Below, in pieces: positions 17,516-58,419 of a DNA stretch of 64,000 nt. The translations under genes and the position numbers were made by a program. Within the stretch, counting starts at the first letter, position 1; each line of letters begins with the position of its first letter. Source of the stretch: a bacterium. GTDB lineage: Bacteria > Patescibacteriota > UBA1384 > VFKW01. Under the pieces are notes generated by a model that did not search any database, was not told the origin of the DNA, and saw nothing but the letters and a program-made list of their open reading frames with translations. The stretch lies in the NCBI GenBank assembly GCA_030647355.1, contig JAUSIS010000006.1, positions 90,221 to 154,220 on the forward strand. The letters are read 5' to 3'.

Positions 17516-18397
17516 CTATTTTTTTTGCCATTTGTATTTCCCTTTTGCGTCCGGTCGAATCTTCTGGATAGTTAGCATGACCTCTTCGCTTTTATCCAGG
17601 GAGACTTTGCGGATAGCTTCCCCATTTGTTCCGACTATCAGTTTTTCTGTGATGGTCATCACAAGAACTTTCTGGGAAGCCGGAAACATGATGGATTGGC
17701 CGTCGTCTTTGACCCCGACCTTTAACGAACGTGTTGTTGTTGAGGCCCTGGCTGTTTGAACACTGCCGCCAATCTCGACGACCTCAATTCCGACTTTGGC
17801 ACTGCTTTCCTGGGCGATGGAGACGCTGTCGGCGAGTTGGAATAGGGCTTCTGCGGAGTCGCCCTTGGCAAACATGTTGATCATCCTACTTACCGTGCCG
17901 ACCGGCTTGATCACTTCAGTTTGCTTTTTGGTGACTTTTGGCACGATCTTGAGGTAGTAGTTCCCGGTTCCTGTTGGGTGCCCTTTCTCATACATAGAGA
18001 TATGGATGTGATTGAGACCGATTCGAGAGTTGGTTGTGAACCGATTTTCCACACCAGTCTCACCAGTCAGCGAAGAATACCATTTCAGTGAATAATGGTG
18101 AGACTGGGAAATCACTGTGCCGGTGATTGGCATGAACACCTGAAACGAACGACTTCCAGTCCAGCGGTCCCATGTTCCCTGCCCCGAGACACCATATCCG
18201 GTGCCATTAGAGTTGTAGCGAGAGATGACGCCGATGCATTTGATGAGCAAATGCTGGGAGTTAACCAGTCGTATAGCATCCTCAAAAGTGAGCTTGTATA
18301 CGCTGGGTATTAGATCGACCTTGCGGTCGGCGGCGAATGCCGCGATGTTAAGTTGCGTGGAAACCAGTACTACCAGAATCCAAAATGACTTTCTCAA
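17516..18397 (-). CDS. Hypothetical secreted protein (signal peptide), GC-rich gene, controlled by GEMM-like leader copy 1
   Basis: TTG start with SD AGGAGGA 6 nt upstream. The N-terminus MRKSFWILVVLVSTQLNIAAFA is a signal peptide. GC content is clearly above the local background. Confidence 0.7.
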   Translation of the reverse strand: MRKSFWILVVLVSTQLNIAAFAADRKVDLIPSVYKLTFEDAIRLVNSQHLLIKCIGVISRYNSNGTGYGVSGQGTWDRWTGSRSFQVFMPITGTVISQSHHYSLKWYSSLTGETGVENRFTTNSRIGLNHIHISMYEKGHPTGTGNYYLKIVPKVTKKQTEVIKPVGTVSRMINMFAKGDSAEALFQLADSVSIAQESSAKVGIEVVEIGGSVQTARASTTTRSLKVGVKDDGQSIMFPASQKVLVMTITEKLIVGTNGEAIRKVSLDKSEEVMLTIQKIRPDAKGKYKWQKK

Positions 18398-18453: not shown

Positions 18454-18699
18454 AAAAAAACTTCTTCCGAAGCTTCTTTGTGAGTACGTATTGAAGTTCG
18501 GCAACCCGGCGACCATTCCAGCTCTTTCAATGAAAGGGCTGGATTAGGCCCGTGGTTTTGCCCCGATGTCGGATTTTGTCCGGATCGGAGTCCCTTATCC
18601 TTCCGAAGAAGGGTGATGGGACGTCATCGCCTTTCGACGACTTTGCCTTTATCGACTTGTTAACAGGATTATTTTAGCACTTTTGCGCCTGTTTGTCAA
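18454..18699 (-). promoter_or_regulatory. GEMM (c-di-GMP-I)-like structured 5' leader, copy 1: promoter, conserved domain and intrinsic terminator
   Basis: On the minus strand the -35 TTGACA (18694-18699) is followed by 17 nt and the -10 TAAAAT (18671-18676). A conserved domain (about 18499-18654) is roughly 90% identical to copy 2. The terminator AAGAAGCUUCGGAAGAAG plus U7 lies at 18454-18479. The SD and TTG start of the 17516..18397 gene follow. Confidence 0.5.
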
Positions 18700-23214: not shown

Positions 23215-23682
23215 TTAATCGATTGCCCAGATATTAACATAGGCTTCGATTATTAGTCGCATAGCGGCGATAGCGGAGTTGCGGGTGTGGAGGCAGAGAT
23301 TGGCAAGCCGAGCTTCAAATTCTTCATAGAACTCGGGCGAGTGCTCCCAGTCAATGTAACGTGCGAGCATGTTTCGCTGAAATTCTGTATCGCAGAGGCG
23401 GTCAAGATATGTATCGTACTGCGCCCACTCGACGGTCGGGATTCTGCCCCCATTTGCTGACCAGAGGGCTAGGGCAAACATGTTGACGACACGCAGGAAG
23501 CTGTCGTGTTCATATTGGCCGCCCGAGCCATCGCTAATCCCGCTTGCACCTATTGCGCATTCTTTTGCTAGGCCCATGAGCCAAGAGTGGAAACGGGGCG
23601 AAGTGCCCTTGATGAGATCGAGGGCATTGAGCCTGCTGTCTTTTGCGGTCTTGGTGTCTTTCTTGTCAATTTTAAGCGACAT
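23215..23682 (-). CDS. Hypothetical protein (GC-rich), controlled by GEMM-like leader copy 2
   Basis: ATG start with SD GGGAGGA upstream; no domain recognised. Confidence 0.6.
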   Translation of the reverse strand: MSLKIDKKDTKTAKDSRLNALDLIKGTSPRFHSWLMGLAKECAIGASGISDGSGGQYEHDSFLRVVNMFALALWSANGGRIPTVEWAQYDTYLDRLCDTEFQRNMLARYIDWEHSPEFYEEFEARLANLCLHTRNSAIAAMRLIIEAYVNIWAID

Positions 23683-23734: not shown

Positions 23735-23963
23735 GAAACAAATACACCAACCGGAGCTGGTGTATTTGCGAGAACCATCCGGCAACCCGGCTGCCATCCA
23801 AGCTTTTTCAACGAAAGAGCTGGATTAGGCCCGTGGCTTTGCCCCGATGTCGGATTTTGTCCGGATCGGAGTCCCCTGAGGAACGTCATCGTCTTTCGAC
23901 GACTTTGCCTTTATCGGGTTTTTAATATAAGCGTATTTTAGCACAAAATATGGGATTTGTCAA
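23735..23963 (-). promoter_or_regulatory. GEMM (c-di-GMP-I)-like structured 5' leader, copy 2: promoter, conserved domain and intrinsic terminator
   Basis: On the minus strand the -35 TTGACA (23958-23963) is followed by 17 nt and TG-n-TAAAAT (23935-23940). The conserved domain is at 23779-23918. The terminator-like hairpin AAAUACACCAGCUCCGGUUGGUGUAUUU plus GUUUC is at 23735-23768. The SD and ATG of 23215..23682 follow. Confidence 0.5.
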
Positions 23964-24067: not shown

Positions 24068-24454
24068 CTAGGGATCCACTAGGACATCGGCCAGCGGTAT
24101 TAGTATGAAGCTGGCAACTAGCGTCACTGGGATCTGTGCCCAGAGACTGTGGGTGAGGGAGAGGGTTATCGCGATAGCGAAGAATGCCGAACAAGCAATA
24201 GTGGCGCAGATGGTTGGCGCCGGCTCGCCATCACGGAACCAACTCACTATCTTCAAGTTCTTGCAGTATTCGGGGTAGCAGGAGAGGCAGATAAGGATGA
24301 TCCAGACGATGCCCACGATGATACCCATAACCACTTCCGCCCAGAACCTGTGAAGGTTGAGGGCTTGGATTGTGCCAATGCATACGAGTGTGCCAATGGC
24401 GACGGTGGTCCAGAATGTCAAATCAGCAGCGAATTTCTGATCTCGGCTTTGCAC
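24068..24454 (-). CDS. Hypothetical small membrane protein (4 TM, GC-rich)
   Basis: Hydrophobic helices and a Cys-rich loop; no motif recognised. Confidence 0.55.
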   Translation of the reverse strand: MQSRDQKFAADLTFWTTVAIGTLVCIGTIQALNLHRFWAEVVMGIIVGIVWIILICLSCYPEYCKNLKIVSWFRDGEPAPTICATIACSAFFAIAITLSLTHSLWAQIPVTLVASFILIPLADVLVDP

Positions 24455-29257: not shown

Positions 29258-30373
29258 TTAGATAGGAACTTCGGTACTTTCTTCTTTAGCGGATTCTAGT
29301 TCTAGTAAATTAATGGTTGGCAAGGCGGCACCGGCAATACCTTGAATCTGGCCATACATTTTAGCGGTGTTTTCTGCTAATCGCATGATTTGTGTTTCCC
29401 GCTGTGCCCAGTTCTTTACCATTGCGCGTTTCTCACTATCCAGGCATTGTTTCATGTTGTCAAAAGTTTCAACCAGTGCTTGTATTTTTTGGGCAAAACT
29501 GTTGGAGGTCAGATAATTGTAGACTTCTTCCATTTTCTGATCTTTGCCAGTTTCGGCGGTGGTGGCTGACGATACAGCAATTAATTGGCTGCGCATAATG
29601 GAAGCAACTCCCAGGAGGAGCGAATAGTTGCATACCCAAATTCCTTTATAATTTCCGAAGTTCGATATCTCTTTAGGGAGGGTGTCAGACAGGAGAATTG
29701 AGAGGTCGGCGTGGATAGAGCGGGAGTCGTCCTTTAGTTTTTGTACCCATTCTTCAGTCCAGTTTTTTGTGCGTTTGGTTTCCCAAGCAATTTTTCCGGC
29801 TGGTTGATTGGATGGTCCATAGACTATCTGAATAATATCAGCTCCGCTGATTCCTTTGGGTACAGGTTCGATTTTGTCTAAGGGGAAGTTTTGTTTAAGA
29901 GTATCTTCTATGTTGAGTTCCAATACTTCGCCTTGAGTTTGCATTGAGCCCTGATGAGCTTTGCGCTCAGCTTCTCGAACAGCTTTTTGAGTATCTTCCA
30001 GCTTTTTTTGCATTTCTTGGATTTGAATTTCATATTTGAATTGGATGTCTTTTTCCATTTTTTCCAAAATAAGTTTGCGTTCCTCTTGGATTTTACGAGC
30101 AGTTTCCAGTTCTTGAATTTTTAACTTATCTTCGAGCTCAGTTTGTTTTTTAATGGAGTCGAGTTCTTTTTTGCGGGAATCTTCTAATTTCTCTTGGATG
30201 GTTTTGAGGGTTTGCGATTGCTCTTTTTCCATTTCGGATTTGAGTTCAGTATGTAAGCGTGGTCGTTCCTCTTCTAGTGATTTTTGGACTTTAAGATTAA
30301 CCATTTTTTGAACAATGGCTTCATCCACAGTAACTTCGCTGCCGCATTTTGGGCATTTGATTTCGTTTGCCAT
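29258..30373 (-). CDS. DUF2130-like protein: N-terminal zinc ribbon (CPKCG) plus long coiled coil plus C-terminal domain
   Basis: The best start is the ATG giving MANEIKCPKCGSEVTVDEA, with SD GGAAGGAAA 4 nt upstream. The upstream in-frame Met at 30412 lacks an SD. Confidence 0.6.
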   Translation of the reverse strand: MANEIKCPKCGSEVTVDEAIVQKMVNLKVQKSLEEERPRLHTELKSEMEKEQSQTLKTIQEKLEDSRKKELDSIKKQTELEDKLKIQELETARKIQEERKLILEKMEKDIQFKYEIQIQEMQKKLEDTQKAVREAERKAHQGSMQTQGEVLELNIEDTLKQNFPLDKIEPVPKGISGADIIQIVYGPSNQPAGKIAWETKRTKNWTEEWVQKLKDDSRSIHADLSILLSDTLPKEISNFGNYKGIWVCNYSLLLGVASIMRSQLIAVSSATTAETGKDQKMEEVYNYLTSNSFAQKIQALVETFDNMKQCLDSEKRAMVKNWAQRETQIMRLAENTAKMYGQIQGIAGAALPTINLLELESAKEESTEVPI

Positions 30374-30570
30374 AATTTCCTTCCGTGAAGTCATTATAGC
30401 AAGCTTTCGCATATGAGAAAAGAGGGACTATACAAAATTCTAAGAAAAATTTGAATATGTCCATCCTTCTATTCAATCTCTTACAGTATTCTGATTGCAG
30501 AAATCTGTAAATAGATTTCATAGTGGAGGATTATGCAAAATGTATAGTTAAAATTTGTGCATAGCAAAAC

Positions 30571-30649
30571 CGGGAGACAATATCCTGCTCAGGTATAGGC
30601 AAGGAGGGGAAAACCTATATCTGAGGCAGGGTACTGCCTCCCGGTATGC
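30571..30649 (-). other. Compound GC-rich stem-loop (outer ccgggag/ctcccgg enclosing two hairpins), followed on the minus strand by UUUUG
   Basis: ccgggag...ctcaggtatagg-loop-cctatatctgag..gaggcag-ggta-ctgcctc-ccgg. It lies between a minus-strand consensus promoter (-35 at 30707-30712, -10 at 30684-30689) and the DUF2130 gene. Confidence 0.4.
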
Positions 30650-30803
30650 ATAATTAAAAGGTACAAGATATTATCGTAATAAAATTATATCATATAAGTC
30701 ATAATTTGTCAATACCTGTTGCAACCAAGTAAGAATTTAAGAAAGTGCTCCCGCACCAGGGGCTTTGATACCAACCTGGTGCAGGAAAATGGGAATGTGG
30801 ATG

Positions 30804-31154
30804 TTATGCGGCGACCTTGGAGGTTGCGAGTGAGCCGAGAGGAGGTAGTGTCTCCGCACGTTTCGTTCTCGCCTCGTGCTCCTCTAGGAGGGGTCGCACG
30901 ATATCCTCAAGCTCAGACCACAGTCGTCCTCCGTCTTCACATGCCTTCCGATATGCCAGGACTCTACTACTTACTCCAAGCTTGGTGTAGGCAATACCGA
31001 TGTAACCATCAATAGTGCGTTTTGAGTAGCAGGAAACCTGAGCGGCTTCCTTGGCGCTTAGTCCCGACAGGACCAAGCCCAGGGCGATCTTCTCGCCTTC
31101 ATTCAAAGGATCACCGAACTCTGGTTTGGGCCTCTTGCCTTCTTCTTTGATCAT
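30804..31154 (-). CDS. LuxR/GerE-family HTH transcriptional regulator (small, GC-rich)
   Basis: LSAKEAAQVSCYSKRTIDGYIGIAYTKLGVSSRVLA is a LuxR-type HTH. A consensus promoter (TTGACA at 31227-31232, 17 nt, TAAAAT at 31204-31209) lies upstream. Confidence 0.7.
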   Translation of the reverse strand: MIKEEGKRPKPEFGDPLNEGEKIALGLVLSGLSAKEAAQVSCYSKRTIDGYIGIAYTKLGVSSRVLAYRKACEDGGRLWSELEDIVRPLLEEHEARTKRAETLPPLGSLATSKVAA

Positions 31155-32738: not shown

Positions 32739-33899
32739 TCAATTGCCTGAAGACTTTTTAATCAGCTCGGCGTAGATTTGGGCGCTGGGACGGGGTTTGC
32801 GGTCGATTGTGTGGAGGCCGAATTTCATTGTGTAGCCGGAGGCCCACTCGAAATTGTCCAATAGTGACCAGTGAAAGTAACCTTTAATTGGGAGATTATC
32901 AGCGATGGCTTTTTGCAGCCAGTCGAAAGTGTCTTTAAGAAATTGCGGCCGAAGTCTGTCTTTGGCATCGGCAAGACCATTCTCGGTGATGTAGATGGGT
33001 TTGCCCCATTTTGTGCATTCTTCGATGGTTTCATAGATTCCTTCAGGATGAACGTGCCAGCCATAATCGTTTTGGACAGAATTATCCTTAACAACTATAG
33101 GATTCTTGGCTTGGAGGGTGGTTTTTAGATAGTAATTGAGTCCAATAAAGTCGCTTTTTTTAGCCATTCTTTTCAGCATGGCATTGTAGAAGAATAATCG
33201 AGCGAGATAACATAATGATCTGTCTAATATATTATTTTTGTACGGTTTGAAAACCATTGTGGAGACAACGGGTCCAATGGGCGTTTGGGGCGAGACTGAT
33301 TTGATAGCGTTGTAAACGAGGTTGTGGGCCTTGATGAAATTGGACCAGGATTTCAAAGCTTTGATTTTATTTTTTTCACCAGGGCACCAACTGCCTTCGA
33401 TATATCCTTTTTGTACATAGACGTTTGGCTCGTTTAGAGTTGCCCAGAAATCTATTGATCCTTTATATTCTTCAGCCATTTTTTGGCAGAAGCGGACGAA
33501 GTATTTGATATTGTCTTTGCTAGCAAAGCCGTCTTTTTTTGCAACCCATTGAGGCAGAGTAAAATGAAAAAGAGTCACCATAATTTTAATATTATTTTTT
33601 TTGAGTAGTTCAAATTGTTTACGACAGTGATTTATTGCTTTTTTGTTAAACATGCCTTCTTCCGGTTCAATTTTTGCCCATTCGATAGACATGCGGTAAG
33701 CGTTTTGGTTGGTATTTAATAGTAATTTAATGTCTTCATTGTATTTATTCCAGCTGTCGCAGGCAATAAGCGAAGTTGAGCCACCTCGAATATGGCCCGG
33801 GATTTGTTCCCAAGCATACCAGTCGCTATTTATATTGCCACCTTCGATTTGGTGGGCGGAAGTGGCGGAGCCGAAAAGAAAATTTTCTGGAAAAGCCAT
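32739..33899 (-). CDS. Glycoside hydrolase family 1 (beta-glucosidase/beta-galactosidase-like)
   Basis: The N-terminus carries the GH1 signature FLFGSATSAHQIEG. The acid/base motif TLNEP and the nucleophile motif YITENG are both present. Confidence 0.85.
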   Translation of the reverse strand: MAFPENFLFGSATSAHQIEGGNINSDWYAWEQIPGHIRGGSTSLIACDSWNKYNEDIKLLLNTNQNAYRMSIEWAKIEPEEGMFNKKAINHCRKQFELLKKNNIKIMVTLFHFTLPQWVAKKDGFASKDNIKYFVRFCQKMAEEYKGSIDFWATLNEPNVYVQKGYIEGSWCPGEKNKIKALKSWSNFIKAHNLVYNAIKSVSPQTPIGPVVSTMVFKPYKNNILDRSLCYLARLFFYNAMLKRMAKKSDFIGLNYYLKTTLQAKNPIVVKDNSVQNDYGWHVHPEGIYETIEECTKWGKPIYITENGLADAKDRLRPQFLKDTFDWLQKAIADNLPIKGYFHWSLLDNFEWASGYTMKFGLHTIDRKPRPSAQIYAELIKKSSGN

Positions 33900-33985
33900 C
33901 TAAACCTCAAAATTAAATTTATTATTGACCTTTTTCGTTAATGCCCAGTCTTGACAATTATATAGTATAAATGTATATTAATACC

Positions 33986-34745
33986 ATAATGATTACTATG
34001 TAAGCCCTTGGATGGTTTTTCCAGATGGTTTGCGTAGCAATCACCTTCACAATTACTATCCCCAGTTCCACATTCTGACGTCCCTAGAGGACGCGGACAG
34101 CAAAGGAGGGCTGGAATCGGTGAATGCTTCCGACGTTACGCCGAAGAATCGGTGAGGGGATGTTGACGCTGGGCAGTTAGGCCAGCCAGTCCCTTAGTCA
34201 TGTCGTGGTCTGAACGTGCAGCATGGGCTGTGAGACCAGTTCCTGAACGGGAGTGCGACTTGGGATCAGGGACTCACTGGAACCATGGAGGGTACGGGTC
34301 GGATGCTTTACAACCATTCCCTGAGTTTCAGTAAGAGTTGACGCTACTACTCGAGCCACTGTAGCAGGTAGCGGGATCGCGCAAGCGATTTTTGGGCACC
34401 AAACAGGGCGAAAAGAATAACGCGTTTTTCACTTGGATTCGGAGAACAAGCTTTAGGCTCCTTTAGCCGGTGGCGATGCTTTACTGCTGTAATGGCAGTA
34501 TCGACACTCGCTGTGAGCCACATTGTGCGGATGCACTTATACTTGACTCGGGATCGAGTGAACCTGGTGATGGCGCGGCCCGTCGTTATGAAACGGGCCG
34601 CGCCCTAGGGATCCATTTTCGTGGGTGATCGCAGAGGTGGTGAGAATCCTCTGCACAGGATTACCCTGCCGGGCAAGCTCTCGCGTTTTACAACGAGAGC
34701 CCCCGGCTACCCTATTTATTAGATGAGTTCGAGAGTAGCTCTTTT
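33986..34745 (+). ncRNA. Candidate large structured non-coding RNA(s): a ~760-nt ORF-free, strongly GC-enriched block (strand tentative)
   Basis: A plus-strand promoter lies upstream: TTGACA at 33951-33956, 17 nt, then TATATT at 33974-33979. The block has no ORF of 60 aa or more except a random-looking 76-aa minus-strand frame. It carries very stable stems, for example GGCGCGGCCCG-ucguuaugaaa-CGGGCCGCGCC at 34573-34606 and GCUCUCG-cguuuuacaa-CGAGAGC nearby. GCAGAGG/CCUCUGC versus AAUCCU/AGGAUU are mutually exclusive pairings. An internal GNRA hairpin plus U-run sits at 34366-34395. Confidence 0.3.
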
Positions 34746-34756
34746 TTTGTATCCAA

Positions 34757-34778
34757 AAATCCTGCAAGTGCAGGGTTC
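34757..34778 (-). terminator. Terminator of trxA (minus strand)
   Basis: On the minus strand the sequence reads ccctgcacttgcagg followed by auuuuugg. Confidence 0.6.
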
Positions 34779-34800
34779 TCGGATACTTATTTTTGGTTTA

Positions 34801-35073
34801 TTACAATGCGGCGTTGATTGCTTCGACGATATTGGCTTTTGGCTGGGCGCCAACGAGTTGATTAATCACTTTATCATCTTTCAAGATCAAAATGGTTGGG
34901 ATGCTCATGACATTGTGTTTACTGGCTTCTTCTTGATTTTCATCAATGTCATATTTGTGTAGGGCAATTTTTCCTTTATATTCTTCTTCAATTTCCTCAA
35001 TGATGGGTTTCATCATGCGGCATGGTCCGCACCAACTGGCAAAGAAATCTAGTAGTTTGACATTAGGCGTCAT
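34801..35073 (-). CDS. trxA: Thioredoxin
   Basis: The active site WCGPC is present; 90 aa. Confidence 0.9.
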   Translation of the reverse strand: MTPNVKLLDFFASWCGPCRMMKPIIEEIEEEYKGKIALHKYDIDENQEEASKHNVMSIPTILILKDDKVINQLVGAQPKANIVEAINAAL

Positions 35074-39236: not shown

Positions 39237-39324
39237 GGGCGACCTCCGGTCGCAATTTTCAATCTCCAAGCACTAACATCGCTATATCTTTATATATGGT
39301 CGGACTTGGTTTTTGAGAGCTGCG

Positions 39325-39373
39325 TACTACATTTAGTGTGCCTTACTCACAATAGAGTCTATATATAGTGTGT
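39325..39373 (-). promoter_or_regulatory. Tandem NrdR boxes upstream of nrdR-nrdJ
   Basis: Two near-palindromic 16-mers, gtactacatttagtgt (39325-39340) and agtctatatatagtgt (39358-39373), are centred 33 bp apart. They resemble the published NrdR-box palindrome acaCwAtATaTwGtgt and overlap a TTGACA at 39372-39377 on the minus strand. Confidence 0.55.
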
Positions 39374-39555
39374 GTCAAGCTGGGGACAACTTTTGCTAAG
39401 AAGGTGTTAATTCTTACAGTGTCATTAATATACAGAACAAAAACCGAATCCGCCAGCTGGCGGATCAAGTATGGATAACTTTATGAGTTTGTGGAAAACC
39501 AAACAAATACCGAATATTGAGTTGGTTGTGCTGAATGGTTAATTTATCGTATGAA

Positions 39556-39590
39556 AAAAGCCCCGCTCTTTCTCGGAAAGGTCGGGGCGT
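39556..39590 (-). terminator. Intrinsic terminator (minus strand) after the interrupted ORF
   Basis: In minus sense the sequence is gccccgacc-uuuccgagaaagag-cggggc followed by uuuuuu. Confidence 0.6.
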
Positions 39591-39598
39591 TGGAATGG

Positions 39599-40026
39599 CT
39601 AGTCTAGTCTGTTGGGAAGCGGAGCGCCCGAGAGGAAATGCTCGTAAACCATCATGGTATCGAGCTCCTTGTTGGTAAACTGATCGTCGGCTCCGTCCCT
39701 AGTTATACTGGCTATGGTGAGTGCTGCTTCTTCAAAGTTTGTCTCGTGGCCGATGACCCAGCGGAGGTATCGAGCAGTTCGAGTGATTGCCCTCAGATCG
39801 AGAGGGGTGTAGTAGAAATCCTCCCGGAAGGCAAGATGCCACTTATGCCAGTAGCAACGATTGTGGATAGCCAGTGCTACTGCTCCGGTTATTAGGGTGG
39901 TAATTCCTGCCCGTATGGCAGCTTCTTTTATAGCTGCGGGCGATGCGTGGTGGTTGAGGATGATAGTCAGCGTGACTATGCCGAGTATCGTGGTGCAGTA
40001 GAGTCAGAAGATTGGCAGAATGCCCA
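39599..40026 (-). pseudogene. GC-rich membrane-protein gene interrupted by an in-frame TGA (nonsense codon at 40003-40005)
   Basis: On the minus strand an ATG follows an SD-like GAGAAGA, giving MGILPIF-TGA-LYCTTILGIVTLTIILNHH...(135 more codons)...PNRLD*. The downstream ~135 codons contain no ATG/GTG/TTG, so they are not a stand-alone ORF. The gene has its own terminator. TGA is an ordinary stop in neighbouring genes. Confidence 0.45.
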
Positions 40027-40217
40027 TATTCTTCTCGGGGTAGATATGCTTTTTGGGACTGATGGTATATGCAAAATCATTCAAAGTCGGATTGCCTCCC
40101 GGAAGTAGTAGTCCATCAAGACGATAGACATTGTATAGTTGATATAGTAGCACTTTAGGGGTTTTCAGTCAACCAAAAATCAGCTCTCTGTCTAGTGGAG
40201 CGGGTTTTTGGTATGGA

Positions 40218-47648: not shown

Positions 47649-48305
47649 TTATTCCTTGGGTGTATTTCGGATAGTTCGGGTGCGATCCTCGATGCGCTTC
47701 ATCATTGAACCTGAGTAGATAATGCACCTACAATCGCTCACATGCCAACCACCGGGTAAGTAAGAGAAATATGGCAGCTTGTCTAGGTTCTCATTCATAT
47801 TCGCCTTCACGCGGGCGACCCACTCGGTGAATTCGCAGTTGATTAACCTGATGTGGTGTGCCACCCCACCGAAACTATATTGATAGGCTCGCCAGTCGCC
47901 GATGGAACTCCACTTTACGGGTATGTCGTTGGTATCTATGATAACGGGAGTTCGGGGACCAGGGAGAAGTCCTATGCCTCGATCGGTGAAGGGCGTGGCA
48001 ATACCTTCCCAGGGATCGCTGCTTGTGCAGGCTGCCTGATAGACGAGAGCCTCAAGCCCACTCTGCACTTCTTTGATCATTGGCTGATCGGGATAGATGA
48101 GAGAAGCCCCAATGAAGGCTACATTGTGCTTCGTCTTGTAGCGAGCGATAGTGACGGTGATGCCCGTGTATAGGTCCTCACCACCAACATGGTATTCGCA
48201 GAACTTGACTTGGAAGGATACCTCAATGGCGTCCGGCAGCACGCGAGCTTTGTCTATGGCTCGTTCTTTCAATGTTCCACCTCCTGCCATATATTGCCCG
48301 ACCAA
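47649..48305 (-). CDS. Hypothetical protein (GC-rich)
   Basis: 218 aa; no motif recognised; GC above background. Confidence 0.6.
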   Translation of the reverse strand: MVGQYMAGGGTLKERAIDKARVLPDAIEVSFQVKFCEYHVGGEDLYTGITVTIARYKTKHNVAFIGASLIYPDQPMIKEVQSGLEALVYQAACTSSDPWEGIATPFTDRGIGLLPGPRTPVIIDTNDIPVKWSSIGDWRAYQYSFGGVAHHIRLINCEFTEWVARVKANMNENLDKLPYFSYLPGGWHVSDCRCIIYSGSMMKRIEDRTRTIRNTPKE

Positions 48306-54626: not shown

Positions 54627-55583
54627 ATGGGTGTGCAGAATGGCAAGGGTGTAGGAAGTGTAAATGAGGGGATTGTGGAGATTACGCTTCCGGTTGCTAC
54701 GGCTACTTTGTTTGAGGGGATGCTGGGCTATGCCGTGGAGTTTGATAACGGCGTAGGAACGGAACAGCGCTATCCTCTCAGTAATGGAGCCGAATCGGGC
54801 GATGAAGACTATGTTCCGACGGTCCATGAACTAGCTCGAGTTCTCGGAATCGATCGGCCAGAGTGGAAGATGTTCGCTCTTATCCGCTCGGGTATAGTTG
54901 CTCCGCTGCATGATAGTCGAGTAGCGAGTGATGAATCTATTCTGAGTGCCTTCCCCGGTAATCGGGTATTTATCAAGGGGATGGTCGAGCCAACGATCTT
55001 TAGGTTGGCAAGGGCCAAGGTGGTCAAGATAGAGAGAGGCGGCGGCAAATCGTTTGGAGACTGTTTCGCGACCAGTAGTTGGGGTGGATACGATGAGATC
55101 AGTCCAAGGCTGGCGACGATCTTCTCCTATCTCGAACGGGACATACCTAAGGATGCTAATGGATGGTTTGATCCGCAAGGTAAGCTCTATCGGGCGATAG
55201 CTGCAAATCGCAATGTAAGTGAGAACTTCGCTGCGGCAACTTTGCGGTATTTCGCCGACGTAGGAGTTCTGGAAGCAAAGGGGAATTCGCATTGCTTCTA
55301 CCGAATCTACCCTGCTTTGACTGAACAGGAGGCTGGATATAAGTTGCCGTACGATATCCCACTGGGGTATTTCTGCGATCTGACTATGACAGAGATACAC
55401 AGCGATCCACTACTCCTGAAGTGCTGGGAGGACACAGTTGCGGCTACTCGCCGACTGAATAGGTTGGTTATCGAGAAGCAGGCTTTGGAGCAACTGATTG
55501 TTGATCGTACTGGTCGGGCGCAGCGAGTCCATCGGGCAAACGAGGCGCGGCAGAAAGCCGCCGAGGGGCTGGATATCGCGTAA
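54627..55583 (+). CDS. Hypothetical protein (GC-rich), immediately adjacent to the IS element
   Basis: 318 aa with GC clearly above background; no motif recognised. Confidence 0.55.
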   Translation: MGVQNGKGVGSVNEGIVEITLPVATATLFEGMLGYAVEFDNGVGTEQRYPLSNGAESGDEDYVPTVHELARVLGIDRPEWKMFALIRSGIVAPLHDSRVASDESILSAFPGNRVFIKGMVEPTIFRLARAKVVKIERGGGKSFGDCFATSSWGGYDEISPRLATIFSYLERDIPKDANGWFDPQGKLYRAIAANRNVSENFAAATLRYFADVGVLEAKGNSHCFYRIYPALTEQEAGYKLPYDIPLGYFCDLTMTEIHSDPLLLKCWEDTVAATRRLNRLVIEKQALEQLIVDRTGRAQRVHRANEARQKAAEGLDIA

Positions 55584-55638: not shown

Positions 55639-57044
55639 TGTTAGCGCAATATAGTAATGTCCGCTTTTAGCAATTTAGAAATGTCCCTTTTTTGGTGCAC
55701 AATGACAAACTTTTTCCATGGATGATTTGCTTTCGGCGTCCAGGGAATTTGCGGATTTTCTTTCTCCTTTCTTTTTACAATTATTAGTTTTTGCGGTCTT
55801 TGGGCTATTTCTTTAAAGTTCAGAGTGCTCTTGCCTTGGTGGATGGTTATTGTTCCGTCTAGGTGTTGCCAGACTTCAACTGTTTCTTTGGGATAGAGGA
55901 TGGTCGGTTGTTTTGGAAGTAGTTGTAACCATCTGGTTTTGTAGGCAGTGGTGTAGTCGTGATTAATCTTCCGCTCCTCTTTGATGCAGAAAATACTATT
56001 AAGATCGTATCCTTCAATACTTTGATGCAGATTAGTTTTACTTTGGGGCTCTTCGGCGAATCTGGCATTATGCAAGGCAATATATTGTTCATTTAAGTAC
56101 TTGTTAGCCTCCTCAATTGACGAGATACCCTTAAGTCTTAATTCTTTCACCAGACGATCCTGGAGAGTGCCAAAGAGACGTTCTACCCGTCCTTTGGCCT
56201 GAGGGCTTCTGGCATAGATCGGAGCAATATCCAGCTCTTCTAGTGCTCGGCCATACTGGGTTAATTTGTCATCGTTAGGGTTATTGAGATTTACTTTGTA
56301 AACTCCGCCACGATCCATATAGAAGGCCGCCGGCTTACCATGAGTTTCTAGATAAGTCCTAGTTGTTCTCATTAGATTTTCCGTCGTCTCCCCGGTCGTG
56401 AATTCCAGATAAACTATCCGGCTGGTGGCATCATCGATGAAGGCAATTAGGGTGCATTTAGACGCCTTGTTTTCAAACCAGGCATGAACAGAGCCATCTA
56501 GCTGGACTAGCTCGCCATAGCATTCCTTGCGCTCGCGCATTTGCCGTGCTTGGGCTTTTCTTTTTTTAAATGTCCATAGTGATTCGTTGATCATTTTTAA
56601 TCTCAAAGATTCGTGATTGACCAGTATATGGTGGTTTTCTTGCAATTTCTCCGAGGCAAAGGTTGGCCCGAAGTCGGCGTATTTATCTTTGACCAAGGTA
56701 ATTATTTCTGTCCAGAACTCATCGGCAAAACGATGGTTGCTTGGTTTCCCCCGGCTTTTATTAACCAGGCTTATTTCTCCGGATAGGCGATAGCTCTTTA
56801 ATTTTCGTCTTATCTGACGGGTACTTAGATTTAATATCTTAGCGGCTTCATGTTGTTTCATTTGTTTTTCCTTTAATTTCTCAAATACATTAATCTGTCC
56901 TATTTCCCTACGGCTCATATTGAATGTCTCCACTTTACCTTTCATCCCACCATTTAAGTTAACTAAACATCATAACCTAAAAGCCGGAGAAAGAGGACAT
57001 TCCTATGTTGCTCATTAATAGGACATTACTATATTGCGCTAACA
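55639..57044 (-). mobile_element. Complete insertion sequence (~1.4 kb) with perfect 24-bp terminal inverted repeats
   Basis: IRL is tgttagcgcaatatagtaatgtcc (55639-55662) and IRR is ggacattactatattgcgctaaca (57021-57044), an exact reverse complement. Subterminal (t/a)aatgtcc repeats are present. A single DDE transposase ORF fills the element. Confidence 0.8.
55641..56945 (-). CDS. DDE transposase (N-terminal HTH plus rve/integrase core; IS481- or ISNCY-like)
   Basis: The catalytic residues lie in ...VQLDGSVHAWF..., ...FIDDATSR... and ...QAKGRVERLFGTLQDRL (D, D, E). The N-terminal HTH reads ...AAKILNLSTRQIRRKL. Confidence 0.85.
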   Translation of the reverse strand: MKGKVETFNMSRREIGQINVFEKLKEKQMKQHEAAKILNLSTRQIRRKLKSYRLSGEISLVNKSRGKPSNHRFADEFWTEIITLVKDKYADFGPTFASEKLQENHHILVNHESLRLKMINESLWTFKKRKAQARQMRERKECYGELVQLDGSVHAWFENKASKCTLIAFIDDATSRIVYLEFTTGETTENLMRTTRTYLETHGKPAAFYMDRGGVYKVNLNNPNDDKLTQYGRALEELDIAPIYARSPQAKGRVERLFGTLQDRLVKELRLKGISSIEEANKYLNEQYIALHNARFAEEPQSKTNLHQSIEGYDLNSIFCIKEERKINHDYTTAYKTRWLQLLPKQPTILYPKETVEVWQHLDGTITIHQGKSTLNFKEIAQRPQKLIIVKRKEKENPQIPWTPKANHPWKKFVIVHQKRDISKLLKADITILR

Positions 57045-57060
57045 AACCAAGCAGGCGGTA

Positions 57061-57277
57061 TTGACAAATCGGATTTTTTATGCTATTATACACAAGCTGG
57101 CATCGAGGTGATACGGGCGGAAGCCAAAGGTAAGGTAACCGTCAGGTCACCTATTACGATGCTTACAAGGCCTAAGTGAATTTCCAGCGATTCGCTTGGG
57201 ACTGGACGGCTAACGAGCCGTACAGAAATCAATCCCCGCAAGGGGTTAATGAGTCCGCCGTCAGGCGGACTTTTCGC
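57061..57277 (+). promoter_or_regulatory. Promoter plus ~180-nt structured leader ending in an intrinsic terminator, upstream of the 57340 gene (riboswitch/attenuator-like)
   Basis: -35 TTGACA (57061-57066), 17 nt, then -10 TATTAT (57084-57089). The GC-rich leader has hairpins ACGGCU-AACG-AGCCGU and CCCC-GCAA-GGGG, and a CCUAAG motif. The terminator GUCCGCC-GUCA-GGCGGAC plus UUUU is at 57242-57266. The SD AAGGAGGG and ATG follow at 57340. Confidence 0.4.
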
Positions 57278-57339
57278 GTTATAATTGAATGGCTCGATCA
57301 AACATGTTAGAGTATAGATGTAATGAATAAGGAGGGAAA

Positions 57340-58419
57340 ATGGATCAGAATCCATCACCTATTTTAAACCAAAATGAGTCTGGACAGCAACAGCAAGCGG
57401 TCAATCAAGACCAGTCCCAAAACAGTAATAAGGCACTTCATACAGCAATTGCGATAATATTGCTGATATTTGTCTTTCCTATCGGTCTAATTTTTATGTG
57501 GATGGCAACCTCCTGGAGTAAAGGGTTTAAGTGGTTCTTAACTTTATTTTTCCCTATAGCTATCGCTTTGCCGATAGTATTAATAATAGTCAGATCTGCT
57601 GTAAATAAAAATGCAATTTCAGCACCAGTAGTAGTTACGAGTTATACGACCTATAACTCGAGGGCTAATAAAATACAATTTAGCTATCCAAAAGGATGGG
57701 TTGTAGAGGAAAGGTTGCCAGGAATTACTGACATTTATATTTGTAAAACGGGGACTAAATCATGCAAAAGCAATACTAACTACAACATTGGTATCGCTAA
57801 TCAAGGAACTAAGACCACAGGGGTAAGCCTACTTGCATATGCCCAAAGCAAGAATATTGCTGGTAGCCAGTATAATATAAGTAATGATACTAATGAATCC
57901 AAAACCAGCAATGGGTATGAGGTTGTTAGCTCAGCGAAAGCCCATTACTACTACATATCCGATGGTGTAAATATATTTACGGTACAGGGAGACAAGGTAA
58001 TCCCTACTTCTAAAATAGAAATTGACCCAGCGATTATAAACCGGATTGTAGATTCGCTTAAAATAAATATACAAGCAAGTGCAGCTAACGCGAATTCTAG
58101 TGATGCTCCCCCATCGATCAATAATTCCACTCAGGCCTCAACTACAAACACCTACAACATTCAGAATTCTACTGATTATCAAAAACAAACTGGCTATGCG
58201 CCAGCTAAAGCATCTGGAACCGTTCAATCATTGTCGTCCTCATCATCTGAGGTTGTAATATTGGAAACATCGTCTCAACAAGCTCTTACCTTTAAAATAA
58301 CTACTAATACTATTATAACTGATGGAACCAAGTCAACTTTCTTAGCCGCCGACAAAAACGTACAAATTGAATATGAAGGTTTTAGCCCCTCAAATGCATT
58401 GAGGATTTGGGTTAAGTAA
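57340..58419 (+). CDS. Hypothetical membrane-anchored/secreted Ser/Thr/Asn/Gln-rich protein
   Basis: A Gln-rich N-terminus, two TM helices and a low-complexity extracellular region. Confidence 0.6.
   Translation: MDQNPSPILNQNESGQQQQAVNQDQSQNSNKALHTAIAIILLIFVFPIGLIFMWMATSWSKGFKWFLTLFFPIAIALPIVLIIVRSAVNKNAISAPVVVTSYTTYNSRANKIQFSYPKGWVVEERLPGITDIYICKTGTKSCKSNTNYNIGIANQGTKTTGVSLLAYAQSKNIAGSQYNISNDTNESKTSNGYEVVSSAKAHYYYISDGVNIFTVQGDKVIPTSKIEIDPAIINRIVDSLKINIQASAANANSSDAPPSINNSTQASTTNTYNIQNSTDYQKQTGYAPAKASGTVQSLSSSSSEVVILETSSQQALTFKITTNTIITDGTKSTFLAADKNVQIEYEGFSPSNALRIWVK

Follow-up and report, generated by a model that had tools for sequence, protein, structure and literature searches.

A candidate long non-coding RNA gene of no known family between the thioredoxin and GH1 glycoside hydrolase genes of a Patescibacteriota genome

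The locus and its predicted transcription unit

Within a 64,000-nucleotide stretch of contig JAUSIS010000006.1 (assembly GCA_030647355.1), hereafter the window, positions 33900-34800 form a block between two intact genes that an earlier note, made from the letters alone, had proposed as a large structured RNA. The block is flanked by a GH1 glycoside hydrolase gene and by the thioredoxin gene trx (Table 1), the latter being the last gene of an operon (nrdR / class II ribonucleotide reductase (RNR) / cobO / DUF6580 / trx) whose RNR is B12-dependent, and the best named relatives of the neighboring aspartyl-tRNA synthetase (AspRS) are found in metagenome-assembled genomes of Candidatus Berkelbacteria and Patescibacteria. 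Our favored interpretation, held with moderate confidence, is that the block is a lineage-restricted, rapidly diverging, stand-alone gene for a long non-coding RNA of no known family, approximately 760-810 nt in length.

The primary evidence for a transcription unit is a sigma-70-type promoter, found just as the earlier note had described it, from which transcription would run rightward and divergently from GH1. The same promoter, as TTGACAA-N16-TAnnnT, occurs at the equivalent site in three related Berkelbacteria loci (L002, L043 and L044), and the register between promoter and a downstream 5′ motif is identical in the four genomes, the versions of the motif being ATG GTT GCC ACA TAA in L002, ATG GTT GCG GCG TAA in L043 and GTG GTT GTT ATC TAA in L044. 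The composite of promoter and 5′ motif, with up to two mismatches, matched the window once, against 0.01 matches expected, and among the non-viral loci examined (about 1.1 Mb) it matched only at the syntenic sites in L002, L043 and L044/L045; L045 is the same contig as L044, and the block set therefore comprises four genomes including the window. A further 17 matches were found in viral contigs from IMG/VR, among which two stretches end early and L137 is also poor in open reading frames (ORFs). We rejected these as relatives because they look like chance occurrences, with ORFs following in nearly all cases and none having a 5′ hairpin as strong as those in the window and L002 (−23 kcal/mol or lower).

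The predicted transcription start lies at about 33985-33988, and a hairpin equivalent to the 5′-terminal stem-loop of the window is built on the 5′ motif in L002, L043 and L044, in each case starting a few nucleotides from the predicted start. When the pairs were tabulated by script across the four genomes, seven basal pairs were found to be kept, with one A-U/G-C double change and several wobble changes; this hairpin is the only part of the RNA for which a comparison of covariation was possible. The motif is also legible as a 4-codon mini-ORF, and the transcript might accordingly be the mRNA for a very small protein encoded there or elsewhere in a short ORF, perhaps resembling type I toxin transcripts. 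Conservation of RTG-RTT-N6-TAA in register near the predicted, possibly leaderless, start would fit such an mRNA, as would locus L125, which encodes an 85-aa membrane protein at the same site. We consider this very improbable, since the start codon is base-paired and buried inside the 5′ stem in all four genomes, the four RNAs have no ORF with a preceding Shine-Dalgarno sequence in common, and a tetrapeptide would not account for the 0.75-1.25 kb of RNA downstream.

At the other end of the block, the U-run at 34742-34748 is the probable primary 3′ end, which would give an RNA of about 760-765 nt; otherwise the transcript would end at the bidirectional terminator held in common with the convergent trx operon. 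Both helices of that terminator are predicted with high pairing probability, although the terminator scan called only its minus-strand side (34774-34761 plus ATTTTTGG). The block thus carries what is expected of a sigma-70 transcription unit, namely a consensus promoter, a U7 run after a helix with a pairing probability of 1.00, and the hairpin with U-run at 34749-34796.

Table 1. Predicted features of the block and its flanks (window coordinates; P, predicted pairing probability)
Feature	Position	Strand	Description
GH1 glycoside hydrolase gene	32739-33899	−	
Sigma-70-type promoter	33951-33979	+	TTGACA at 33951, 17 nt, TATATT to 33979; 11/12 matches to consensus
Conserved 5′ motif RTG-RTT-N6-TAA	33989-34003	+	ATG ATT ACT ATG TAA; begins exactly 9 nt after the −10 hexamer
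5′-terminal stem-loop	33990-34043	+	54 nt, 21 bp; 5′ arm is the conserved motif; helices 33990-94/34039-43 (P 0.84), 33996-34006/34027-37 (P 1.00), 34008-12/34020-24 (P 0.91)
Central GC-rich body	34044-34342	+	55-58% GC; domains weakly determined, helix P mostly 0.4-0.9
3′ domain	34343-34739	+	about 400 nt; 13-bp long-range closing helix, 34343-34356/34727-34739 (P = 1.00)
GCAA-capped stem GAUCGC/GCGAUU	34375-80/34385-90		within the 3′ domain
12-bp GC stem GGCGCGGCCCGU/ACGGGCCGCGCC	34572-34583/34593-34604		within the 3′ domain
Extended hairpin	34623-34666		within the 3′ domain
Hairpin	34668-34707		within the 3′ domain
Stem GCUCUCG/CGAGAGC	34677-83/34694-700		within the 3′ domain
Longest ORF of the block	34537-34767	−	76 aa
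U-run UCUUUUUUUG	34740-34749	+	directly 3′ of the domain-closing helix; read from the sequence
Bidirectional terminator	34749-34796	both	common to block and convergent trx operon; GUAUCC..CCUGCA-AGUG-UGCAGG..GGAUAC with U-runs on both strands; helices 34749-54/34781-86 (P 1.00), 34758-65/34770-77 (P 0.98)
trx, thioredoxin gene	34801-35073	−	

No credible coding potential was found in the block. The 76-aa minus-strand frame, already recognized in the earlier note as the only one of any length, is the longest ORF; reassigning TGA, TAG or TAA stop codons opened no long frame, Pfam comparison of the six-frame translations gave no credible family match, and the six frames, concatenated into a single query, gave no match at E ≤ 0.01 among 5.8 billion proteins, the last two results bearing equally on the earlier proviso that the block might be a decayed protein gene. 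When the 76-aa ORF was searched exhaustively with HMMER against 1.84 billion representatives, two matches were obtained, both to sequences made of perfect tandem repeats, which we rejected as artefacts because their scores sum stacked 25-28-bit matches over the repeats. The protein P0241 (643 aa) consists of ten perfect 62-aa repeats and is probably a translated 186-nt tandem or circular repeat; its repeat-inflated match to the antisense translation of 34561-34752 was judged spurious. By ORF length, stop reassignment, Pfam and protein searches, a protein-coding gene or pseudogene is rejected.

The block likewise matches no known RNA family. Rfam 15 at gathering scores gave no match in the block and only two matches in the window, both c-di-GMP-I riboswitches located elsewhere (18497-18657 and 23778-23919, minus strand, 47-48 bits), each of which adjoins GC-rich small ORFs (17516-18397 and 23215-23682). 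A permissive all-family scan of 33800-34900 (E ≤ 10) produced only noise (Fungi_SRP at 18 bits against a gathering score of 65, a plant microRNA and a human long non-coding RNA), a permissive scan of the whole window (E ≤ 0.05) added nothing, the blocks of the relatives had no family match either, and ARAGORN found no tRNA or tmRNA genes. These searches bear out the earlier statement that the block is neither rRNA nor tRNA and is unmatched to RNase P, tmRNA, group II intron domain V or the cobalamin riboswitch. Membership in ROOL, GOLLD, OLE, raiA or HEARO was rejected for lack of a covariance-model match in the window or in the relatives' blocks; RNase P RNA, tmRNA, signal recognition particle RNA, 6S RNA, rRNA and tRNA for lack of a model match; and group I and group II introns and small self-cleaving ribozymes for lack of an Rfam match, the block moreover lying between intact genes and not within one. 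For the cobalamin riboswitch, no Cobalamin or AdoCbl model matched at E ≤ 10.

It could be argued that the block belongs to a known family but has diverged too far for the models to recognize it, for example as an ornate large RNA, a group II intron without an ORF, a cobalamin riboswitch or an RNase P RNA, given that size and GC-richness resemble ROOL, GOLLD and OLE, and that a partial GCCACUG at 34355-34361 lies in a block adjoining a B12-dependent RNR operon. We regard this as extremely improbable: nothing beyond noise was obtained from Rfam at E ≤ 10, the relatives' blocks were also negative, and on the plus strand no gene lies 3′ of the block for a riboswitch to regulate, the next feature being the end of the convergent gene. 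On the other side of the same operon, 5′ of nrdR and the B12-dependent RNR, is a 948-nt ORF-poor gap (39270-40217) with GC content up to 0.51 and minus-strand folding z-scores (defined below) of about −3.6 to −4.1, also with no match to a cobalamin riboswitch or other Rfam family.

Repetitive and mobile elements were considered as well. Tandem Repeats Finder reported no arrays, and only short two-copy direct repeats are present in the block; CRISPR, TIGR and type III antitoxin-type arrays were rejected, as regularly spaced repeats are absent. The direct repeat that the earlier note had reported (GAATCGGTGA) does exist, at 34114 and 34146 (3-6 nt from the positions given there), as a short two-copy match that may be due to chance, and an apparent internal duplication of about 174 nt in the window RNA was rejected as not significant (z 1.4). 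A second copy of the block was not found within the window and blastn against phage and plasmid collections gave no match to it, on which grounds a mobile element (miniature inverted-repeat transposable element, insertion sequence or prophage fragment) was rejected. No antisense target within the window showed complementarity above chance (longest match 14 nt), and in the literature searched no such RNA is described for the candidate phyla radiation (CPR) or Berkelbacteria. Judged by its sequence, the predicted RNA is an orphan long bacterial non-coding RNA belonging to no known family.

Composition, folding and strand

GC content in 200-nt windows is 0.49-0.58 across 34000-34800 compared with 0.33-0.44 in the flanks, and the gap as a whole (33900-34800) is 49.1% GC against a mean of 41.5% for the 64-kb window. 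The GC enrichment reported earlier, to more than 50%, therefore stands for the core of the block (52-58%), but the genomic baseline is about 41.5% and not 35-40%. The accompanying premise, that GC-rich islands nearly always represent structural RNA, does not hold for this window, which contains five protein-coding ORFs of 51-54% GC (30804-31154, 24068-24454, 54627-55583, 23215-23682 and 47649-48305; only the first, of the GerE family, was compared against Pfam). Because protein-coding ORFs are equally GC-rich, a high GC content cannot by itself be taken as a sign of RNA in this genome, and within the block the 300 nt richest in GC (34044-34342) are not structured above background. Along the window, cumulative GC skew climbs steadily from position 1 and turns down at about 56-57 kb (within about 56000-58000), which may mark a replication origin or terminus.

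For folding, we compared the minimum free energy (MFE) of whole transcripts with that of dinucleotide shuffles. The sense strand of the window block had z-scores of −7.25 and −5.2, and the relatives scored −6.0 (L002), −9.5 (L043) and −8.9 (L044), while 800-nt coding controls from the same loci ranged from −0.9 to +1.2. The earlier proposal of a large structured RNA is thus supported for the block as a whole, but the fold is not uniform, with the signal carried by the 5′ hairpin (local z −2.9 to −4.0 in a 160-nt window) and by 34343-34751 (z −6.72, with none of 100 shuffles as stable). Structure in the relatives is likewise patchy, a third to 60% of 160-nt windows having z ≤ −2.

The RNA would close with a compact 400-nt multi-hairpin domain, inside which most helices have P > 0.9. 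The stable stems singled out earlier (the GC stem, GCUCUCG/CGAGAGC and the GNRA-capped GAUCGC/GCGAUU; Table 1) are all present with pairing probabilities of 0.90-0.99. By contrast, two pairings that had been described as mutually exclusive and switch-like need not compete: GCAGAGG/CCUCUGC (P = 1.00) stacks inside GGGUGAUC/GAUUACCC (P = 0.97), and both helices coexist as one extended hairpin in the MFE structure and in the ensemble.

This architecture bears on the number of RNAs. The block might encode several shorter transcripts, an RNA of about 400 nt ending at the GCAA hairpin and U-run (34375-34398) followed by a second RNA, or a precursor that is processed. The sequence GAUCGC-GCAA-GCGAUU followed by UUUUGGG resembles such an end, L043 and L044 also have internal sites with a hairpin plus U-run, and local structure is uneven, being strong toward both ends and weak in the middle. 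Nevertheless, we find this distinctly unlikely, as no second promoter is predicted inside the block, the terminator scan makes no call at the GCAA hairpin, the U-run after that hairpin is itself paired (34391-95/34399-403), and the segment is enclosed by the P = 1.00 helix that closes the 3′ domain. The earlier description of one long RNA of the ROOL/GOLLD/OLE size class or two adjacent RNAs is therefore retained in part: the block appears to be non-coding and partly folded with its own promoter and terminators, and a single RNA is less doubtful than two because the long-range helix encloses the internal hairpin plus U-run, but the RNA is unlike those conserved ornate RNAs.

As for the strand, the promoter strand has more G than C and more U than A in all four RNAs, G-U pairs make up 13-19% of pairs in the sense fold versus 4-9% in the antisense fold, and the sense fold is more stable by 35-141 kcal/mol across the four genomes. 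In the folding models, this strand bias supports RNA-level structure on the promoter strand. A minus-strand leader, that is, a long structured 5′ untranslated or intercistronic region controlling GH1 and transcribed from the trx operon or a weak promoter, would be compatible with the minus strand also folding better than shuffles and with L042, in which only 15 nt separate trx from GH1 and the two are presumably co-transcribed. We think it quite improbable, given that in each of the four genomes the plus strand is preferred by G-U content and by folding energy, the conserved consensus promoter and 5′ motif point the opposite way, the trx terminator intervenes at 34761-34774, no minus-strand promoter is predicted in the block, and no riboswitch or leader family matches.

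Relatives and divergence of the body

In the four genomes, the order trx / ORF-poor spacer of 0.9-1.5 kb / GH1 is maintained. The trx-GH1 spacer measures 1199 nt in L002 (AspRS 83% identical to that of the window; 48.5% GC), 1178 nt in L043 (AspRS 78%; 41.6% GC) and 1543 nt in L044 (GCA_009885355.1, Berkelbacteria Bin_65_7; GH1 62%; 40.6% GC), so that the spacer is GC-enriched in the window and L002 and not in L043 or L044. All four spacers end in a hairpin and U-run, those of L043 and L044 with TTTTTTG(A/T), and the window and L002 blocks have just one long exact match, the 15-mer GTAGCTCTTTTTTTG at the 3′ end (25 nt at 88%).

Between these ends we detected no similarity. Neither blastn nor nhmmer found anything in the interiors of any pair, Smith-Waterman scores fell within the range of dinucleotide shuffles, and shared 6- to 9-mers and colinear k-mer chains were at chance level. 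The few shared pieces, TACGCCGAAG and ACTCACTGG (window and L002) and a GCACCGUG...CGGUGC hairpin (L043 and L044), are not statistically supported. No k-mer was clearly over-represented in all four RNAs; CGGGA occurs 3-4 times in each (z 1.9-3.3, marginal), without a consistent structural context. Because the syntenic RNAs have no interior sequence or motif in common, no conserved core or covariation of the body is demonstrable. Two of the relatives contain internal 50-nt direct repeats, 82% identical at 324-nt spacing in L002 (466-1664) and 86% identical at 235-nt spacing in L044 (4566-6108), where each repeat forms a hairpin followed by a Shine-Dalgarno-like AAAGGA(G/A) and AUG; the block RNAs may grow by internal duplication.

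Outside the four genomes, GH1 synteny in JGI metagenomes and GTDB genomes yielded, besides L045, only distant GH1 genes (≤52%) without the block, more distant GH1 loci sit in other gene contexts, and relatives anchored on AspRS at 77-78% identity have other synteny and no block. For GH1 alone, L042 is nearest to the window (L042 610-2058 against window 32739-35073), with GH1 at 68%, the closest, Trx at 53% and DUF6580 at 44%, the most distant; this discordance hints, from sequence comparison, at an exchange of GH1 or at uneven evolutionary rates. By Trx and DUF6580 the four block genomes are 62-70% identical to one another versus 39-53% to L042, and since they group together with L042 outside, the simplest reading, though not a proven one, is that the block had a single origin in their ancestor.

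The observations that weigh against a functional long RNA are best considered together with the main alternative, a non-functional variable spacer, in which the remains of decayed genes or of mobile elements would have accumulated at a trx-GH1 hotspot, the promoter and first nucleotides would be either retained because they serve the promoter region of the adjacent, divergent GH1 or a relic of a lost gene, and the hairpins would be terminator remnants and palindromes. The block is found in four genomes only, no two of them close enough for covariation of the body, and in every pair the interiors cannot be aligned and are no more alike than shuffled controls, as neutral spacer or independent replacement would give. 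In L042 the block is absent, and as this is the closest GH1 relative, the element is dispensable or lineage-specific; in L125 (GH1 57%) the divergent promoter drives the 85-aa predicted membrane protein instead of a long RNA. GC enrichment is limited to two of the four spacers, and the central 300 nt of the window block are not more stable than chance (z −0.46, 200 shuffles). Perfect hairpins score on both strands, and the antisense of the window block (z −7.05, −4.7 and −7.2) is about as far below its shuffles as the sense. Other intergenic regions are also strongly negative, for example 30413-30803 (z −8.9 to −10.7). Finally, the mode of action discussed below is reached by conjecture.

Against a decaying neutral spacer stand the lack of a protein remnant in any frame, the absence from the window of the second copy that a repeat element would give, the invariant spacing of promoter and motif and the persistence of the 5′ hairpin through compensatory changes across four diverged genomes, the bias toward a G+U-rich strand common to all four, with z-scores of −5 to −9.5, and the retention of all four spacers at 0.9-1.5 kb although CPR genomes are generally compact and very small. 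On balance we judge the spacer explanation unlikely. If it were nonetheless correct, the locus would be a caution that GC-richness and negative z-scores do not identify a structured RNA family.

Two of the loci named above merit description in their own right. The 391-nt gap at 30413-30803 (minus strand) has a GC-rich gene of GerE/LuxR type (30804-31154) on one side and a DUF2130 gene (29258-30412) on the other, and contains a terminator hairpin, a perfect TTGACA-N17-TATAAT, a near-perfect hairpin of about 85 nt with a U-run and more hairpins, without an Rfam match; a similar gap precedes DUF2130 in L002 and L042, and the region may be a structured leader. In L125, positions 793-1335 comprise TTGACA-N17-TAGAAT, a strong Shine-Dalgarno sequence, the gene for the 85-aa protein, which has no Pfam match, and a terminator.

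Interpretation and comparison with known systems

Taking the long non-coding RNA gene as our favored interpretation, we infer that its RNA is transcribed and stable. The 5′-terminal stem-loop would probably shield it from decay that depends on the 5′ end, and the conserved 5′ arm of the hairpin could also serve as a recognition element. Within a small Berkelbacteria-like CPR clade, the promoter, the first 20 or so nucleotides with their hairpin, and the terminator would be under constraint, while the body would have diverged beyond recognition yet stayed long (0.75-1.25 kb), free of ORFs, rich in G+U and rich in hairpins. Heavy pairing and C-poverty would spare an untranslated RNA from Rho and single-strand nucleases. 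Our guess, a weakly supported one, is that it could be an abundant RNA, resistant to nucleases and to Rho, that serves a structural or decoy role by binding or titrating a structure-recognizing protein; we guess at such a sequence-tolerant function because no conserved core, repeated loop motif or antisense target in the window was found, and for the present would disfavor a conserved catalytic or ligand-binding core or sequence-specific antisense pairing relative to a decoy or scaffold.

More tentatively, and with considerable doubt, the four loci could represent a new class of long CPR/Patescibacteria RNAs defined by position, promoter and 5′ hairpin, with bodies free in sequence and selected to be long, G+U-rich and base-paired. 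Were this true, an RNA of this kind, acting through its architecture as a scaffold or decoy or by resisting nucleases, might have a connection with episymbiosis or with an arms race, and its rapid turnover would then be accounted for. In genomes as small as those of CPR bacteria, a kilobase of non-coding sequence retained behind a consensus promoter probably does not lie idle. If the RNA is real, bacteria too would have long non-coding RNAs that are conserved in position and labile in sequence, to which homology-based tools (Rfam, CMfinder-style pipelines) are blind by design. The pattern TTGACAA-N16-TAnnnT-N9-RTGRTT-N6-TAA offers a handle for finding further members.

Several known systems resemble the block in part. 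The ompA leader has a 5′ stabilizer hairpin which, as here, is a stem-loop within a few nucleotides of the (in our case predicted) 5′ end with conserved pairing, whereas in the block the predicted RNA behind the hairpin is non-coding and the 5′ arm is conserved at the sequence level too, so that the hairpin may also be a recognition element for a protein or for polymerase. The large ornate RNAs ROOL, GOLLD, OLE, raiA and HEARO, all of which are in Rfam, are similarly hundreds of nucleotides long, ORF-free and GC-enriched relative to an AT-rich genome, with their own promoter and terminator and a multi-hairpin fold; however, they have conserved nucleotides and covarying helices across many species, in contrast to the block RNAs, which have no interior sequence, motif or demonstrable fold in common.

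CsrB/RsmZ and 6S RNA also combine a strong promoter, an intrinsic terminator and many stem-loops, and in them sequence drifts fast while architecture and position persist. The block RNAs are 5-10 times longer, with no repeated loop motif found equivalent to the GGA of CsrB/RsmZ (CGGGA being marginal) and neither the open-promoter mimic nor the Rfam match of 6S. Positionally conserved eukaryotic long non-coding RNAs and yeast telomerase RNA, as observed for the block, keep synteny, promoter and short terminal elements around a body that is unalignable and variable in length; here the setting is a compact bacterial genome, and the likeness is one of evolutionary behavior and not of mechanism. 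By this analogy, the evolutionary behavior of the predicted block RNA appears closer to that of CsrB, 6S or the eukaryotic long non-coding RNAs than to that of ROOL, GOLLD and OLE.

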